The position numbers are program-made. This document shows positions 1 to 6,000 of a DNA stretch of 64,000 nucleotides, piece after piece; the first letter of the stretch is position 1; the number at the start of each line of letters is the position of its first letter. Origin of the DNA: Candidatus Scalinduaceae bacterium (lineage in GTDB: Bacteria; Planctomycetota; Brocadiia; Brocadiales; Scalinduaceae); contig JBHICG010000007.1 in the NCBI GenBank assembly GCA_046759445.1, positions 1-64,000 on the forward strand, written 5' to 3'.

Positions 1-3000
1 TTGTTGTTTCCAAAGATCCAGTGGCTGTGGAAAAGGCAACTATAGACATAATAAACAAACGTACAGGAAAAGATTATTTTAAACATATTTGGCCAAAATT
101 AGACTATACCGTACAGCTCGAGCATGCGGATGAAATTGGTTTGGGCAATCTTGAGTATGATTTAGAAAATATAACTCTCGATGAACAAGTTGCTGTAACA
201 TAAATCGATTAACTGACAATTTGAATGGATATTTTATTGTATAGGAATTTTTATTTTGTGTTGAATAAAATGTAGCGGAGGTCTTTAGACCTCCACTCAC
301 CATGGGGTGGATACTAATGTTCATGTAACCTTTTTACCAGCTATCCTATGGACGTGGAAACCTGAAGGTTTCCGCTACAGCGGGTATGTGTAACTTGAGA
401 ATGCAATTAAATTATAATAATTATAGAATTTCTCCAAAAAAATGATTTCGCTTAATCGTAAGGTTATAATATTCGGTTTAGATTCTGCACCACCTGAGTT
501 AATCTTTGATAAATGGCTTGATTATTTGCCTAATATAAGACATCTCGTTTCAAACGGGATTTTTGGTAAACTAAAAAGTACCATACCTGCGATTACGTGC
601 CCGGCATGGGCATCAATGGTCACAAGTGTTAACCCGGGCAAGCTGGGAATATATGGTTTTAGAAATAGACGCCATTATGATTATGAAGGTTTATGTTTTG
701 TTGATTCAACTTCGATTAATCATGAGCCTATTTGGAATATACTTTCAAGATATGGCAAAAAGACCATCGTTATCGGTGTGCCACAGACTTACCCCCCCAA
801 ACCAATTTATAATGGCTACATGGTAACGTGCTTCCTCACACCTGACAAAAATTGTCAGTACACCTATCCTGCTGAACTCAGACATGAAGTGGAAAGGATA
901 TCGGGCGGCTATATCCTGGATGTGGAAAATTTTAGAAGTGAAGAAAAAGAGCATATCTTAAACACAACATACGAAATGACACATAAAAGGTTTAAACTTG
1001 CAAGACACTTTATACAAAATGAGGATTGGGATTTTCTTATGATGGTAGAAATGGGAACGGATAGGTTACAGCACGCATTTTGGGGATTTTTTGATAATAG
1101 ACATCCCAGATATTTGCCAGGCAATAAATATGAAAATGTTATATTCGACTATTATAAATATATCGATGATGAAATAGGCAAGACAATTTGTCTATTGGAC
1201 GAAGATACTCTCATTTTAATAGTTTCTGACCACGGCGCCAGGATGATGGAGGGAGGAATCTGCATAAACGAATGGCTATTAAATAATGGATATCTTAAAC
1301 TCATTCATTATCCTGAAGAAGTTACTCAAATTAGCAAAAATATGATTGATTGGGATAAGACCATGGTGTGGGGTGAGGGTGGATACTACGGACGTTTATT
1401 CTTTAACGTTAAAGATCGAGAACCTAGAGGCATAATTCCAAGGCAAAATTATGAGTTTTTAAGAAACGAATTAATAATGGCGCTTGAAGACCTGAGAGAC
1501 GAGAAGGGACAGAATATAAATACAAAGGTATTTAAACCAGAAGAAATTTATTCAGAATGCAGAAACATCCCACCTGATTTGATCGTTTATTATGGGGATT
1601 TAGCATGGAGATCTGTGGGCAGTGTTGGTCATAATACTATTTGGACTAACGAAAACGACACAGGCCACGATGACGCAAATCACGCTCAATATGGAATATT
1701 TGCGATGTATGGTGATAGCCGCAATAATGCCGGGAAAAGAGAAGGATTACAAATAATGGACGTAACACCTACAATTTTAGACCGTATGGGATTCGAGATT
1801 CCCTGGTATATGGAGGGAAATATTATCACATAAAAGCCTGTTGCGCAACAGGCTCACAATCTGTGAATATTATTTACTAAATATCTTTTAAGTCATTCCC
1901 ATCCCCTGTACCATACGGTACAGGGCATAAGTGTGAATCCGGCAAATAATAAATACATAATATTAAATAACTTAATAAAGGAGGGAGCAAGCCATGAAGG
2001 ATTTTCTTTGGTCACTGAGTTTCTTAACAATAATTCCAACAGGCAAAAGATGGGATGAAAGACAACCCGGAATTTGTAAGGTAGCGTTTTGGTTTCCTAT
2101 TATTGGTCTTTTGATAGGTGTTGCTCTTACGTTTGCCTATTTTCCGGCAATTCGATACTTTCCACACCTGGTTGCAGATGCCATAATCTTGATAATCTAT
2201 ATTTTTATAACTGGTGGTTTCCATCTTGATGGTTTTGCTGACAGTTGTGATGGTTTGTTTGGTGGGGATACCAGGGAAAAAAGACTCGAAATAATGCGAG
2301 ATAGTCGAACAGGGAATTATGGTGTACTATGCCTTATCTGTATCTTGGGTTTAAAATATCTATGCCTTGTCTTGATTGATCCAAAGGAGATAGCCAAATT
2401 ATCCCTTGTCAGTGATTACAAGACGATAGAAGGTATAGGTTCTATTCATCTTTATGCCTGTGAAAAAGGTAAAGTTCTTCTTTTTATGTGTGCCATCGGG
2501 CGTTTGTCTCAGATACTGGGCGCAGCAATTTCGACTTATGCCAGAGACGAAAAGGGTACGGGCCAAATAATTGTTGAAAACGTCAATCTTAAACATTTCT
2601 TGCTTTCTTCAATCGTACCCGCAATACTTATTTTTTTATTTTGTGGTATTAAAGGAATCATTATACTCCTTATAGCGCTGGTTGTAAGCCTCTTGTTTAC
2701 ATTTTATGTCAAAAGAAGAATCGGAGGTATGACAGGAGATACCCTTGGTGGAGTAAATGAAGTAAGTGAGATAACTGTTTTACTTTCCTTTTTGGCTATT
2801 TGACTTCTGATTCACCACAGAAAGACACCGAAAAACACAGAAAATGATAGGTAATGAGCAAACTGCTATATGAAGACTTAACTTATAAAATCATAGGAGC
2901 TGCACAAGAAGTATATAAAGAACTTGGCCCTGGTTATTTGGAATCGGTTTATGAGGATGCATTGTGTTACGAGTTGGATTTAATAAATATACCTTATCAA

Positions 3001-6000
3001 AGACAAATAGAATTAGATGTCCATTATAAAAATGTTGTTTTTGAAAGTAAGTTTAGAGCAGATATGCTAATAGAAAATAAAGTTCTTGTAGAAAACAAGG
3101 CAATAAAAACTATAACAAATCAGGATGAAGCACAATTAATAAATTATCTTAAAACAACTCGCATAAGGGTGGGTTTATTGTTTAATTATGGAGCAGAATA
3201 ATTTGAAAAGGTTAGATGAATATTCTGACCGGCCAGAACAATTTCTGCTTGGTAGTTCAGTGTAATTCAGTGAAAATTCCGTGGTAACTTAAATGTCAAA
3301 AATAACATTCATAATCGGTGGTGCAAGGAGTGGCAAGTCCACGTTTGCAATGAAGCTTGCCAGTAAATACGAACACGTCTGTTACGTTGCCACTGCAGAT
3401 TCCTCACAAACCTCGCAGATTAATGATGATGAGATGGTCAAGAGGATACAAGATCACCAAAAGAATAGACCAGCCAACTGGGAAACGATAGAAGCTCCCC
3501 TTGATTTAGACAAGGCTATTTCAAACCTTGACGGCAAATTAGAGGTTGTACTAATTGATTGTATAACCCTTTATATAACAAATATGCTTCTTAATAGTCG
3601 TAAAACCGAAGAAGAAAAACACATAATTGATGCAATAAATAGTTTATGTTTGGTTTGTAAAAAGATTTCCCCTCATGTTATAATAGTATCCAATGAAGTT
3701 GGTTACGGCATAGTACCACATAATCCACTTTCAAGAAAATTTCGTGATATTGCCGGTTATGCCAATCAATTGATTGCAAGAGAGGCAGATAGTGTCTTTC
3801 TTGTTACGGCAGGAATCGAAACCAAAATTAAATAAATGTAGCTGAAGTCTTCCAGTTTTGTCATTCCCAACTTGATTGGGAATCTATATTAGATTCCTGC
3901 TTATGGCCGTCCGAAGGACGGCACGCAGGGCGGGAATGACATGGGAGAATGACACCTTAATCATGTGGCAAATATCCAACCATACTATTTTTTTCGAAAG
4001 GAGACAAAATGAAATTTTTTATTGATACAGCAGACGTAAAAGAGATAAGAGAAGCAGAAAGCCTGGGAATCTTGGACGGTGTTACAACTAATCCCACATT
4101 AGTATCAAAGACCGGGCGACCTTTCAGGGAGACCATCGAAGAGATATGTTCAATCGTAAAAGGCCCCGTAAGCGCAGAAGTAGTCAGTACAGAGAAGGAA
4201 GATATGGTCAAGGAAGCAAGAGAGTTATCTAAGATAGCTGAGAACATAGTCGTCAAGATACCGCTCATAAAGGAGGGCCTCAAGGCCGTAAAGGTTCTGA
4301 CTTCAGAGGGCATACACGTAAACGTCACCTTGTGTTTTTCATCAAACCAGGCCTTACTTGCCGCTAAGGCAGGAGGTACCTATATTAGTCCCTTCGTAGG
4401 AAGATTAGACGATAGAGGACATACTGGAATGGAAGTTGTTGATGAGATTAGGACTATTTATGATAACTATGGATTTACGACAGAGATAATAGTTGCCAGT
4501 ATTCGAAATCCCTTGCACGTAAGAGATGCCGCACTTATGGGTGCCGATATTGTTACAGTTCCATTTACGGTGTTTAACAATATAGTAAAACATCCATTGA
4601 CTGATGCGGGACTTAAGCAATTCCTTGCAGACTGGGAAAAGGTTCCTAAAGAAGCTGAGGCTTTAGTATAGAAAAGCTTAAGGGATATCTGAATTACACA
4701 GAAATACAAAAATCCTGTATATCCACATATTCTTAATCCTGTCAAAAACCGTACCTACAAGGGTTGTGATCCAAGGAAAACGTCAAGGCTGTTTTTTAGA
4801 TGACAGTATAAACAAAGGTTTTCTGCCTGATTAAGGGAACATAATATGACCAGAAACCTAATTAAAAAGGATTACGACCACATCTTGTAATATCAATAAA
4901 CCCTTGCTTGTAAAAAAAAATATTATTACCTATCCGCCAAGCGCCAGTTTGTGAACACAGGTATGATATTTTCCATCTACCTCATCTATCTTTAGTAATT
5001 CATTTCCTGTTTTTTCACACCGTGGTTTTGAGTTAGTCTTTATTCCATCATCAGTTGCGATGATTTCCAGAACTTGTCTGTTATCCATTTATTTTATCTT
5101 TTGATATTAACAGAAACCTTTAAATTTAAATCTCTGTCTACTATTATTGAAAGACATAAGATGAAGCTTACTATAATTCTACAACCCCGTACTTAACCAA
5201 ATCATAAGTATTTCTGTATGAATGTATTACAACATTTTTTGCTTAACTGCTTGATTCGGTACGAAAGTTGTTGTTATATTCTTCAAAATTTGCTAAATTT
5301 AATATTTATCATATGAAGATAGCATTTTTTTATAAATCTCTGTTTATTTCACACTGAATAACAGTTATTTTTTGATTTTGGAGAAATTTTTTGAATAACA
5401 TTAATATTTCTTATCTAAAACAGCTTGAGTCAGAGTCTATTCACATTATTCGTGAAGTAGCCGCTGAGTTTAAAAATCCTGTTATGCTTTATTCTATTGG
5501 GAAAGACTCCGGCGCAATGGTTCGCCTGGCACAAAAAGCCTTTTATCCCGGTAAAATCCCTTTTCCACTTATGCACATTGATACCGGATATAAATTCCCC
5601 GAGATGATAGAATTTCGAGACCAGTTCGCTAAAGAAACGGGATGCCGACTTATAGTTGAACGAAATGAGGAATGGATTGGCAATGGTGTACATCCTCTCA
5701 AGATTGGAGTGGAAAAATGCTGTGCCAAACTGAAGACTCAGGGACTCCTTAATGCCATCAAAAAACACAAGTTTGATGCAGCTTTTGGAGGAGCGAGGAG
5801 GGACGAAGAAAAGTCCAGGGCAAAGGAACGCGTCTTCTCTTTCCGGGACGAATTCGGACAATGGGACCCTAAGTATCAGAGGCCGGAACTCTGGAATCTG
5901 TATAACTGCCTCATAAATGAGGGGGAAACGATCAGGGTATTCCCCCTGAGCAACTGGACTGAACTCGACGTCTGGCAATACTTGAAAATCGAGAAGATAC

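Follow-up and report, generated by a model that had tools for sequence, protein, structure and literature searches.

An old, decaying small-gene cassette between cobS and cobU in a Candidatus Scalinduaceae bacterium

Described systems and the insert between cobS and cobU

Among described elements, the nearest in layout to the one analyzed here are the intervening sequences (IVSs) of 23S rRNA genes, such as those of Coxiella burnetii (helix 45) and Leptospira. In Coxiella the IVS spans 428-444 nt, its terminal stem measures 28 bp, and the loop carries the ORF (PMC4990558). Our cassettes resemble IVSs in total length (approximately 430-550 nt), in their inverted ends of approximately 28-30 bp, in enclosing one ORF of approximately 120 aa, and in being sporadic, horizontally transferred, and at times ORF-less; the IVS protein family (IVP or S23p, PF05635) is itself the cargo of 13 full-length cassettes in the genome studied. 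The cassette described here differs from them in lying between cobS and cobU rather than in an rRNA helix (9, 25, or 45), and in carrying a GxxExxY gene (PF13366) rather than S23p/PF05635. Its arms are arrays of 6-9-nt units; the comparison with the arms of IVSs covers layout.

Other systems share parts of the design. Foldback (FB-type) transposons have inverted repeats built of tandem short units, variable arms, and an optional ORF, and many of them are ORF-less hairpins. The cassettes have the same unit-built terminal inverted arms, optional central ORF, and ORF-less hairpin forms, but Foldback elements are eukaryotic, much larger, and unrelated in sequence, so the analogy is one of design only. 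The Correia/NEMIS elements of Neisseria and the enterobacterial ERIC elements are MITE-type hairpins that form part of operon transcripts and are cleaved there by RNase III; they too are small, with inverted ends, co-transcribed between or beside genes, and their hairpin offers RNase III a potential target, but they are gene-less, 100-160 bp long, and uniform in their ends throughout a family, and they create a target duplication of defined form. Free-standing homing endonuclease genes, including phage T4 seg/mob and those for PD-(D/E)XK and Vsr-like/DUF559-type homing enzymes, likewise set a small nuclease-fold gene precisely between conserved co-oriented genes, with empty sites and a discordant tree; the cassettes differ in having inverted arms, a non-nuclease cargo in the case of IVP, and no co-conversion tract. 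In REPtrons, a RAYT (Y1) transposase gene is flanked by REP palindromic inverted repeats, an arrangement to which the DUF559 genes described below come closest; the arms of IVP and GxxExxY cassettes do not fold on themselves as palindromes, and neither gene encodes a Y1 transposase. Integron gene cassettes, finally, are promoterless single ORFs that are co-oriented, expressed from outside, and marked by an imperfect inverted repeat recognized by its structure; their attC is one-sided and they form arrays next to intI, whereas the cassettes considered here are scattered in operon joints.

The locus lies in the window, that is, the whole 64,000-nt stretch analyzed (positions 1-64,000 of contig JBHICG010000007.1, Candidatus Scalinduaceae bacterium GCA_046759445.1, here G000). 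Pfam and TIGR profiles place cobS, a small ORF, and cobU in the order given by the genome-wide survey's note, all on the + strand:

1994..2803, +: cobS (adenosylcobinamide-GDP ribazoletransferase), upstream host gene; PF02654 1.7e-53, TIGR00317 2.3e-41; stop codon TGA at 2801-2803
2811..2844, +: left arm, built of three degenerate CRCRRAG-family units of 8-10 nt, CACAGAA AG ACACCGAA AA ACACAGAA
2854..3201, +: GxxExxY / PDDEXK_3 gene, 115 aa; PF13366 8e-38, TIGR04256 4e-39
3202..3228, +: remnant of the last nine codons of the GxxExxY gene beyond a premature stop, recognized by sequence against the orthologues
3256..3288, +: right arm, TCAGTGTAATTCAGTGAAAATTCCGTGGTAA, the left-arm units inverted
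3293..3835, +: cobU (cobinamide kinase/guanylyltransferase), downstream host gene; PF02283 7e-57

The insert between the host genes measures 489 bp (2804-3292), two arms of approximately 30 nt standing around the ORF. A regular-expression array match covers 2816-2842 of the left arm, and this arm can be aligned to its counterparts in the orthologous cassettes of G027, G011, and G005.

The small gene belongs to the GxxExxY family by both profiles (PF13366, 129.8 bits against a cut-off of 22; TIGR04256, 133.5 bits against 35), and its product retains the catalytic-type residues D70, E80, and K82; in an alignment of 44 sequences, G27, E30, Y33, E80, and K82 never vary, and at least 90% have D70. 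In a structure comparison, the orthologue from G005, as modeled by AF2 (pLDDT 91), finds its closest structure in Cas4 SSO0001 (4ic1), and the fold is nearest to Cas4 and RecB-type nucleases. Proteins from many phyla share 47-97% identity, and a dN/dS of approximately 0.1-0.2 among orthologous cassettes points to purifying selection on the ORF. The orthologous proteins have 124 aa, and the window protein has 115, since a premature TAA at 3199-3201, through which the Pfam match in the genome search runs, cuts off the last nine codons and with them the last beta-strand. Compared with the orthologues, a second in-frame TGA (3217-3219) precedes the ancestral TGA (3226-3228).

The window cassette is a real insert, but an old, decaying copy, and its own stem was at best weakly recovered. 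Its arms (24 nt) are 75% complementary, the insert as a whole folds no better than shuffles (z = -0.64), the duplex has -31.3 kcal/mol (controls: median -26.1, 5th percentile -40.4), and the flanking-repeat score is 28 where the 95th percentile of 281 control genes is 27. In a comparison that gives the window copy -26.1 kcal/mol, the arm duplexes of the three orthologous cassettes reach -51.5, -46.6, and -40.2 kcal/mol; relative to these orthologues, G-to-A changes in the left arm of the window copy have produced A·C mismatches with the right arm. Complementary ends of the IVS kind are found in the orthologues (-40 to -51 kcal/mol) and in the class at large, and are marginal in the window copy.

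Distribution, gain, and loss of the cassettes

Profile searches of the genome matched the survey's counts of the three families. PF05635 (IVP) gave 18 rows at 17 places, with 13 full-length genes and four broken ones; PF13366 (GxxExxY) gave nine rows, six of them full-length; and PF04480 (DUF559) gave seven rows, which represent five full-length genes and one broken gene in two pieces. Flanking inverted repeats exceed the 95th percentile of the 281 controls in 20 of the 24 full-length genes and in none of six broken IVP/GxxExxY copies. The co-orientation with the upstream gene that had been counted as 28/28 is now 31/31 for called cassette genes; downstream it is 25/29, the genome baseline being 2364/3103 (0.76). 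Across phyla the corresponding figures, from crude ORF calls, are 42/50 and 34/46, modestly above typical. Pfam confirms cassettes in unrelated operon contexts: cas1-cas2, purL-purQ, cheY-cheR, hsdR-Fic-hsdM, sdhA-sdhB, and archease. No promoter or terminator signals rose above shuffles. Triple CRCNRAR arrays occur 26 times in G000 (zero in the reversed-sequence control), and they include ORF-less hairpins and solo arms. REP-like repeats also pile up in the same operon joints of G000 as the cassettes, and the control genes with the strongest flanking repeats include RAYT-type genes flanked by REPs.

The arms follow more than one design. Those of GxxExxY cassettes, which the survey's note had called private, form one conserved family, whose consensus of TCTC and three CRCRRAG units is common to at least 12 phylum-level groups, and stand above shuffles at 31 of 52 GxxExxY loci across phyla. 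IVP arms are unit-built at 19 of 27 Planctomycetota loci, with diverse units. In both families an arm is a direct array whose sole pairing partner is the arm at the other end; the DUF559 genes have local, self-folding, GC-rich hairpins of a different design, not long-range unit arrays.

The joint between cobS and cobU was surveyed in 22 family genomes with both genes at one locus. Four are occupied, by a cassette orthologous in three genera, and nine are exactly empty (TAATG/CAATG), the ATG of cobU overlapping the stop of cobS (TAATG). The other nine comprise three with gene-less remnants of 91-93 nt whose arms are made of other units, one with the right arm alone, one with the left arm and a pile of other repeats, and four with other short fillers; precise empty sites and a gene-less stem remnant had both been claimed before. 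Empty, occupied, gutted, and arm-only states are found at three operon joints in related genomes. The cassette tree is at odds with that of its flanks: between G000 and G005, dS is 0.24 for the cassette and 1.07 and 0.87 for cobS and cobU, and between G011 and G005 it is 0.66 for the cassette and 0.25 and 0.23 for the same two genes. Identity between G000 and G005 is 0.88-0.97 within the ORF and drops in a sharp step to 0.63-0.78 from the arms outward, and there is no co-conversion tract in the host flanks of this pair.

Unlinked copies in G000 are 93, 90, 85, and 80% identical. The pair on C60 and C90 shares 92.9% identity over 519 nt, a likeness that begins at the left arm and stops approximately 25 nt past the right arm, and both members carry an ORF-breaking 35-nt insertion. 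The C90 site is occupied in G000 only, and the native sequence CTGACTTATTCGAG, of which G018 and G008 have one copy each, flanks the cassette there on the left (14/14) and on the right (11/14). The earlier statement that no target duplication was seen thus fails for this one fresh, G000-only insertion, which has a 14-bp duplication; over 44 cassettes, the direct-repeat score of the flanks (7.16) does not differ from that of mismatched pairs (6.98). The right flank of the C60 copy holds flank sequence of the C90 site, and ectopic gene conversion lets one unlinked copy replace the sequence of another. That these small genes are discrete insertions, gained and lost as units as the survey proposed, is supported by the multi-state joints, the discordant tree, and the near-identical unlinked copies. 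Searches of phage records and viral contigs returned no close relatives and plasmid records only eight matches, and so pointed to no vector for transfer. Taken together, the survey's description stands in its locus, counts, contexts, and empty sites, and falls short in the window stem, the private arms, and the DUF559 flanks.

Mobile cassette, RNA element, or homing gene

On balance we consider it somewhat probable that 2804-3292 is a decaying, promoterless, hairpin-bounded small-gene cassette, selfish and mobile, whose arms act at the level of DNA. Two terminal inverted arms, each of approximately three 8-nt CRCRRAG-type units, enclose the Cas4-like PD-(D/E)XK (GxxExxY) gene, and the cassette would live on read-through transcription of its host operon. 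The arms are probably in the main DNA-level element ends, inverted arrays of a short motif in foldback-like fashion rather than a co-evolving RNA helix, although they could still pair in the transcript, where RNase III may cut and so limit the harm to the operon. As to the mode of movement, we infer that the putative nuclease would be the likeliest helper of movement or homing. The terminal inverted repeats do move with the element, as the arms shared by C60 and C90 and the 26-fold arm family of G000 indicate. Against this reading, neither a mobilizing enzyme nor an excised or circular form of the cassette was seen; no transposase was identified in cis or in trans, though no test aimed at one was made, and G000 has no RVT_1 reverse transcriptase; RAYT-type genes are present. 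The target duplication at only one insertion, the merely modest co-orientation across phyla, the want of close relatives in phage records and viral contigs, and the conservation of the right arm described below also tell against it.

The arms might instead be kept for pairing in the operon transcript, RNase III cutting the stem and releasing the cassette RNA, an IVS-like possibility that we judge unlikely but that has several observations on its side. If it were true, the host messages would be separated or insulated in the manner of ORF-bearing IVSs cut from 23S rRNA. Size and layout fit the Coxiella IVS, IVP is the cargo of many of the cassettes, these are always in sense orientation, and G000 encodes an RNase III. 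The left arm stops 0-16 nt short of the start codon and bears GGAG/AAAG-like units, so that pairing could gate translation. The right arm, moreover, is 89% identical in 6/6 pairs of orthologous cassettes and exceeds third-codon-position identity in the cassette gene (5/6 pairs), cobS (6/6), and cobU (6/6); conservation beyond synonymous sites implies a lasting function, for which a pure "end used once" model offers no explanation. A selected RNA helix, however, should accept G·U pairs and purge A·C, and the sense-strand mismatches of 64 cassettes comprise 114 of each, in a test that leaves room for RNase III to act on stems that are young and nearly perfect. Most spacers between units do not match (29% do, and 19% among mismatched pairs). 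One unit type is common to all six units of a cassette, and units are as alike out of register as in it (0.84, 0.84, 0.85). With no excess of G·U and no register-specific covariation, the RNA-level stem of the survey's IVS reading is without support, while its unit insertion and IVS-like layout stand. The window copy's failure to fold better than shuffles also counts against an RNA element, as does the 23S gene on contig C5 of G000, which has no cassette and no ORF-sized insert. The contigs from two RNA runs that join cobS to cobU match the empty-site DNA of relatives, as the survey had cautioned they might, and as contigs without molecule ends they show no cleavage.

Less probable again, and in our view improbable, is a free-standing homing endonuclease, a GxxExxY or DUF559 Vsr-like nuclease that would cut the empty joint of a genome lacking the cassette and let repair copy it from an occupied allele, the arms being secondary. 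The retained D, E, and K of the PD-(D/E)XK fold, the precise empty sites, the orthologous occupied sites in three genera with their discordant dS, and the series of intact, degenerate, ORF-less, and empty states would suit a homing gene with a cycle of gain, decay, and loss, and one publication places DUF559 together with the homing endonuclease of a group I intron (PMC3424549). Yet IVP cassettes, whose four-helix-bundle products are no nucleases, behave alike, identity falls off at the edge of the cassette with no sign of a co-conversion tract, different cassette lineages with different arms have struck the same joint, the C60 and C90 copies were copied despite their shared broken ORF, and the unit-built arms would be left without a reason. 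That the genes are ordinary, immobile accessory genes of their operons, with REP-type or terminator-type hairpins gathering in the intergenic DNA around them, is very improbable and, for IVP and GxxExxY, largely refuted: the self-folding DUF559 flanks, the REP-like repeats in the same joints, and the REP-flanked RAYT-type controls speak for it, but the host operons are mutually unrelated, the joints are exactly empty in relatives, identity between unlinked copies is 93% with arms included, the related proteins span many phyla, and the arms pair solely with the far arm.

A possible wider family

The class of cassettes is widespread and apparently undescribed, and our literature search found no paper describing it. 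What is new is the GxxExxY arm consensus across phyla, the distinct DUF559 flanks, the mismatch spectrum, the 14-bp duplication, and the ectopic conversion. We would go further only tentatively, with a proposal that we regard, taken as a whole, as doubtful: the classical ORF-bearing 23S IVSs may be the rRNA-resident subset of one large superfamily of foldback-type cassettes that crosses prokaryotic phyla, with a small IVP (four-helix bundle) or GxxExxY (nuclease) gene lying in each between inverted arrays of a 6-9-nt unit. As part of that same proposal, the units, all six of one type in a given copy, might be written by a process that adds repeats or reads motifs, perhaps telomere-like 3' addition or a unit-reading multimeric protein, rather than being kept by helix pairing. 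The elements may also target the stop/start joints at which operon genes are translationally coupled, and such targeting would explain why distinct lineages strike the same joint repeatedly.

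Cassette genes, their hosts and their arms

The cassette finding is real, and the class it represents is apparently undescribed. In the window, cobS and cobU are separated by 489 bp (2804–3292) holding a single co-directional ORF, and no promoter-like or terminator-like site rose above shuffles. The features are as follows.

1994–2803, same strand as the cassette ORF and cobU: cobS, by profile match to CobS
2854–3201, same strand as its neighbours: cassette ORF, 115 aa, PF13366 PDDEXK_3 (8e-38) and TIGR04256 GxxExxY (4e-39)
3293–3835, same strand as cobS: cobU, by profile match to CobU

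The genome to which the window belongs (G000; 3.62 Mb in 145 contigs) contains PF05635, the IVP or S23p family of 23S rRNA intervening-sequence (IVS) proteins, in 17 places (13 full-length), PF13366 (GxxExxY) in 9 (6 full-length), and PF04480 (DUF559) in 6 (5 full-length). The genome-wide survey's note had described such genes as always co-directional with the upstream gene and lodged in unrelated operons, and both statements hold. Among 3416 genes from a crude, purpose-made caller, cassette genes are oriented as the upstream gene in 31/31 cases and as the downstream gene in 25/29, against a baseline of 2364/3103; one of the 31, on contig C82, is a 361-aa gene with a fragment match only and is probably not a cassette. 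Pfam matches for 57 neighbours identify unrelated host operons, the contexts including cas1–cas2, purL–purQ, cheY–cheR, hsdR–Fic–hsdM, sdhA–sdhB, ferredoxin–NrfD, AspRS–RecG, DegT–AsnB and others.

Inverted repeats within 170 nt on each side of the Pfam match were scored against 281 random small genes, whose 95th and 99th percentiles were 27 and 33.2. Full-length genes exceed the 95th percentile in 5/6 cases for GxxExxY, 10/13 for IVP and 5/5 for DUF559; none of six broken or fragmentary GxxExxY or IVP copies does. The top control scores belong in part to mobile genes of other kinds, for instance RAYT-type genes with REPs on both sides. Two IS200-like/RAYT-type tyrosine-transposase genes (C30:34427–34960 and C98:6485–6997), lying between inverted REP hairpins, are among the strongest of these controls. 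A small GIY-YIG-type gene at C60:4434–4793 has GTCATT...AATGAC flanking repeats; with it, the small nuclease families bordered by repeats may number four. On contig C78, at about 10300–12600, the small ORFs are GC-rich, unlike this 37% GC genome, and the contig may be contamination in the bin.

The arms of IVP and GxxExxY cassettes are direct arrays of two to four units of 6–9 nt, the far arm being an inverted copy. DUF559 genes carry on each side a GC-rich hairpin that folds on itself (CCCCTCC...GGAGGGG), and their design is therefore REP-like rather than a long-range stem. With the protein of a single G000 paralogue as query, we assembled 56 GxxExxY loci, 47–97% identical, from at least 12 phylum-level groups as judged by record title. 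Among the 52 with enough flank, arms lie beyond every shuffle in 31. Left arms stop 0–16 nt short of the start codon, and the inverted copies begin again 1–13 nt past the stop. The consensus common to the loci is TCTC(N)C and then a triplet of CRCRRAG units in the forms CGCAAAG, CACGGAG, CACAAAG or CGCAGAG. The arms had been called private to each cassette; those of GxxExxY instead follow this single consensus across the phylum-level groups. Because the consensus is shared, arms of different loci also pair with each other; significance was judged against shuffles, not cross-locus duplexes. In G000, arrays of three such units number 26, against 0 in the reversed sequence. Some of them form hairpins with no ORF, and four are left arms standing alone, of the type seen in the window cassette. 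IVP arms, of the same build but diverse unit sequence, are present at 19/27 Planctomycetota loci; the family itself occurs in 68/151 sampled genomes. A search of 12 cassette loci against Rfam, at E up to 0.1, returned no arm match, its sole match being a chance miRNA.

Within this class, the window copy is an ageing one. Its arms belong to the CRCRRAG-unit family. The stem claimed for it is weak: no inverted repeat betters one of 24 nt with 75% complementarity, the fold of the 516-nt region has z = -0.64 (26/100 shuffles equal or better), and the flank duplex, at -31.3 kcal/mol, compares with a median of -26.1 and a 5th percentile of -40.4 among 1388 other small genes. G-to-A changes in the left arm, relative to orthologous arms, have produced A·C mismatches. 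Damage extends to the gene, whose last nine codons, corresponding to the last beta-strand in the predicted model, are lost to a premature TAA (3199–3201) and a second in-frame TGA.

Gain, loss and movement at operon joints

Searching 28 family genomes, we found cobU in 24 and both cobS and cobU at 22 loci. The cassette is present in 4/22 (G000 and its relatives G027, G011 and G005). In 9/22 the joint, the stop/start junction of the two genes, is exactly empty, with stop overlapping start (seven TAATG, two CAATG; the congener G025 among them), so the precise empty sites proposed earlier are borne out. Three further relatives (G018, G019 and G010) hold 91–93 gene-less nucleotides made of two degenerate arms of other unit types, G007 retains a right arm alone, in the congener G026 a left arm is retained and small palindromic repeats, piled up over about 470 nt, come after it, and the remaining 4 of 22 contain other fillers of 16–345 nt. 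Stems of the orthologous cassettes are strong (-51.5, -46.6 and -40.2 kcal/mol) and built of CACGGAA-type units. In the G027 cassette (locus L004), a 47-nt insertion with a small hairpin separates the ORF from the right arm, which indicates that small palindromes nest within cassettes. Palindromic repeats of a GTCATTCC...GGAATGAC family also lie after cobU and before cobS in the window (3836–3960 and 1870–1930); copies occupy decayed cassette joints of relatives (loci L002, L112, L114 and L138), and they look like a REP/MITE-like family of Scalinduaceae.

The history of the cassette differs from that of its flanks. Between G000 and G005, dS is 0.24 for the cassette gene versus 1.07 for cobS and 0.87 for cobU; between G011 and G005 the relation is reversed, 0.66 versus 0.25 and 0.23 (figures resting on 115–124 codons). 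The change in identity at each cassette edge is abrupt, not a gradient. A dN/dS of about 0.1–0.2 indicates that selection has acted on the cassette protein. Right-arm identity is 89% in every one of the six orthologous pairs, exceeding third-codon-position identity of cobS and cobU in 6/6 pairs (0.54–0.84) and that of the cassette gene in 5/6 (0.62–0.88), while the left arm varies (0.58–0.92), with units gained or lost.

Two unlinked GxxExxY copies of G000 bear on movement.

C60:9116–9445 (locus L028): GxxExxY copy at a flavin oxidoreductase–enoyl-CoA hydratase joint
C90:6030–6398 (locus L027): strong-arm GxxExxY copy on the hydG side, at a joint occupied only in G000

As the survey had reported for unlinked copies, the two are nearly identical (92.9% over 519 nt), the 3′ two-thirds of the ORF most closely. 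Both ORFs contain the same 35-nt mini-hairpin insertion, and in both the conserved C-terminus is replaced by another frame; since the ORF-breaking insertion is common to both, it was a defective copy that was copied. At the C60 joint, six genomes from three genera have a cassette or what is left of one, whereas in at least 12 further genomes the joint is tight. The survey's note saw no target duplication; however, the 14-nt native sequence CTGACTTATTCGAG, single-copy in G018 and G008, stands on both sides of the C90 cassette (14/14 left, 11/14 right) and is a target duplication. Over 44 cassettes we found no general flanking direct repeat (7.16 versus 6.98 for mismatched pairs). The right flank of the C60 copy includes about 20 nt belonging to the C90 site, from which we infer that an old C60 cassette was overwritten from C90 by ectopic conversion.

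Different unit-array elements occur at the same joints in different genomes, and such repeated use points to either a preference for stop/start targets or strong filtering of insertions. No RVT_1 reverse transcriptase was found in G000 (97% completeness), which makes a present-day retro-mobility route unlikely in this genome. Phage records gave no match by tblastn, and two viral-contig scans no relative; eight plasmid records matched, every one non-mobilizable and <60% identical.

The arms as an RNA stem or as element ends in DNA

A helix selected in sense RNA should keep G·U and purge A·C, and our scoring treats both transitions alike. G·U and A·C mismatches number 30 and 23 in 14 G000 cassettes, 46 and 60 in 31 cross-phylum GxxExxY loci, and 38 and 31 in 19 IVP loci, giving 114 of each beside 190 transversion mismatches. 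At 19 loci with three clean units on each side, likeness at variable positions is 0.84 within a cassette versus 0.61 between cassettes, a value reached by 0/5000 permutations. Being in register adds nothing to the likeness of partner units (0.84), which is 0.84 among units of one arm and 0.85 for out-of-register units of the far arm, so what each cassette keeps is one unit type throughout its six units rather than base pairing. The spacers that separate units agree in 29%, versus 19% for mismatched pairs. By these sequence comparisons, the arms look more like motif arrays, which either a protein reads or slippage and template switching keep uniform, than like an RNA stem whose halves co-evolve.

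RNase III, whose gene is present in G000, may still cut young, near-perfect stems. The balance of G·U and A·C, the register-free unit type, the target duplication and the ectopic conversion together make a role in RNA processing less likely for the arms, and one as element ends at the DNA level more likely. The earlier description of the cassettes as IVS-like is right in architecture and putative as to mechanism, and the mismatch and register tests tell somewhat against it. The G000 23S gene is without an ORF-sized insert. That gene (C5:1–2835, locus L194) has about 38 and 64 extra bases relative to the Rfam model, in two segments, with a 17-nt hairpin, 88% complementary, at C5 165–251; an rRNA helix may here be lengthened by a short stretch that has no ORF.

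Contigs from two metatranscriptome runs of one study, assembled and thus devoid of molecule ends or strand, and aligned at 90% likeness, skip the window cassette (2801 to 3292, 2803 to 3290 with TTTA between, and 2760 to 3292); other contigs contain the cassette and match the window at about 92% identity. We read the skipping contigs as empty-site or remnant relatives, since the skip from 2801 to 3292 has the sequence that relatives show in DNA at the empty joint, and cutting by RNase III is not followed by re-joining. The contigs speak neither for nor against processing.

The encoded protein and what the class means

The intact G005 orthologue was modelled with AF2 from an alignment of 44 rows (pLDDT 91.2), and Foldseek places the model closest to the Cas4 SSO0001 (4ic1; E 6e-5, TM 0.55). 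Another Cas4, an alkaline exonuclease and AddAB/AdnAB nuclease domains are the next model-based matches, and archaeal Hjc resolvases appear as weaker ones (E about 1e-2). Sequence profiles identified no solved relative in the PDB (best E 0.064). PDDEXK_3 is tabulated with function "Unknown" and multiple transfers in PMC3424549.

Several published accounts touch on this design. The Coxiella IVS, as described in PMC4990558, is 428–444 nt long, with a 28-bp terminal stem cut by RNase III at mid-stem and an S23p ORF in the loop; the same source, dating from over 25 years after IVSs were discovered (1990), still regards their origin, function and mode of spread as unclear. In CPR bacteria, PMC11270868 reports rRNA insertions that contain IVP ORFs, and the reference list of PMC7593598 offers a lead that unit arrays occur also in helices of other structural RNAs. 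Full-text literature searches, covering few subscription journals, gave incidental mentions only and no account of hairpin-bounded IVP or GxxExxY operon cassettes.

If the design is common in operons across phyla, the origin and spread of IVSs and the function of the IVP and GxxExxY proteins would become testable, with hundreds of natural series of gain, loss and decay and with protein-coding reporters in place of ribosomes. There is also a consequence for annotation. Small genes of this kind in cas, restriction-modification and biosynthetic operons had been taken as functional partners of their neighbours; PMC3936711, for example, interprets 18 IVP genes within cas loci as having a cas-associated function. 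It is more likely that they are passengers.
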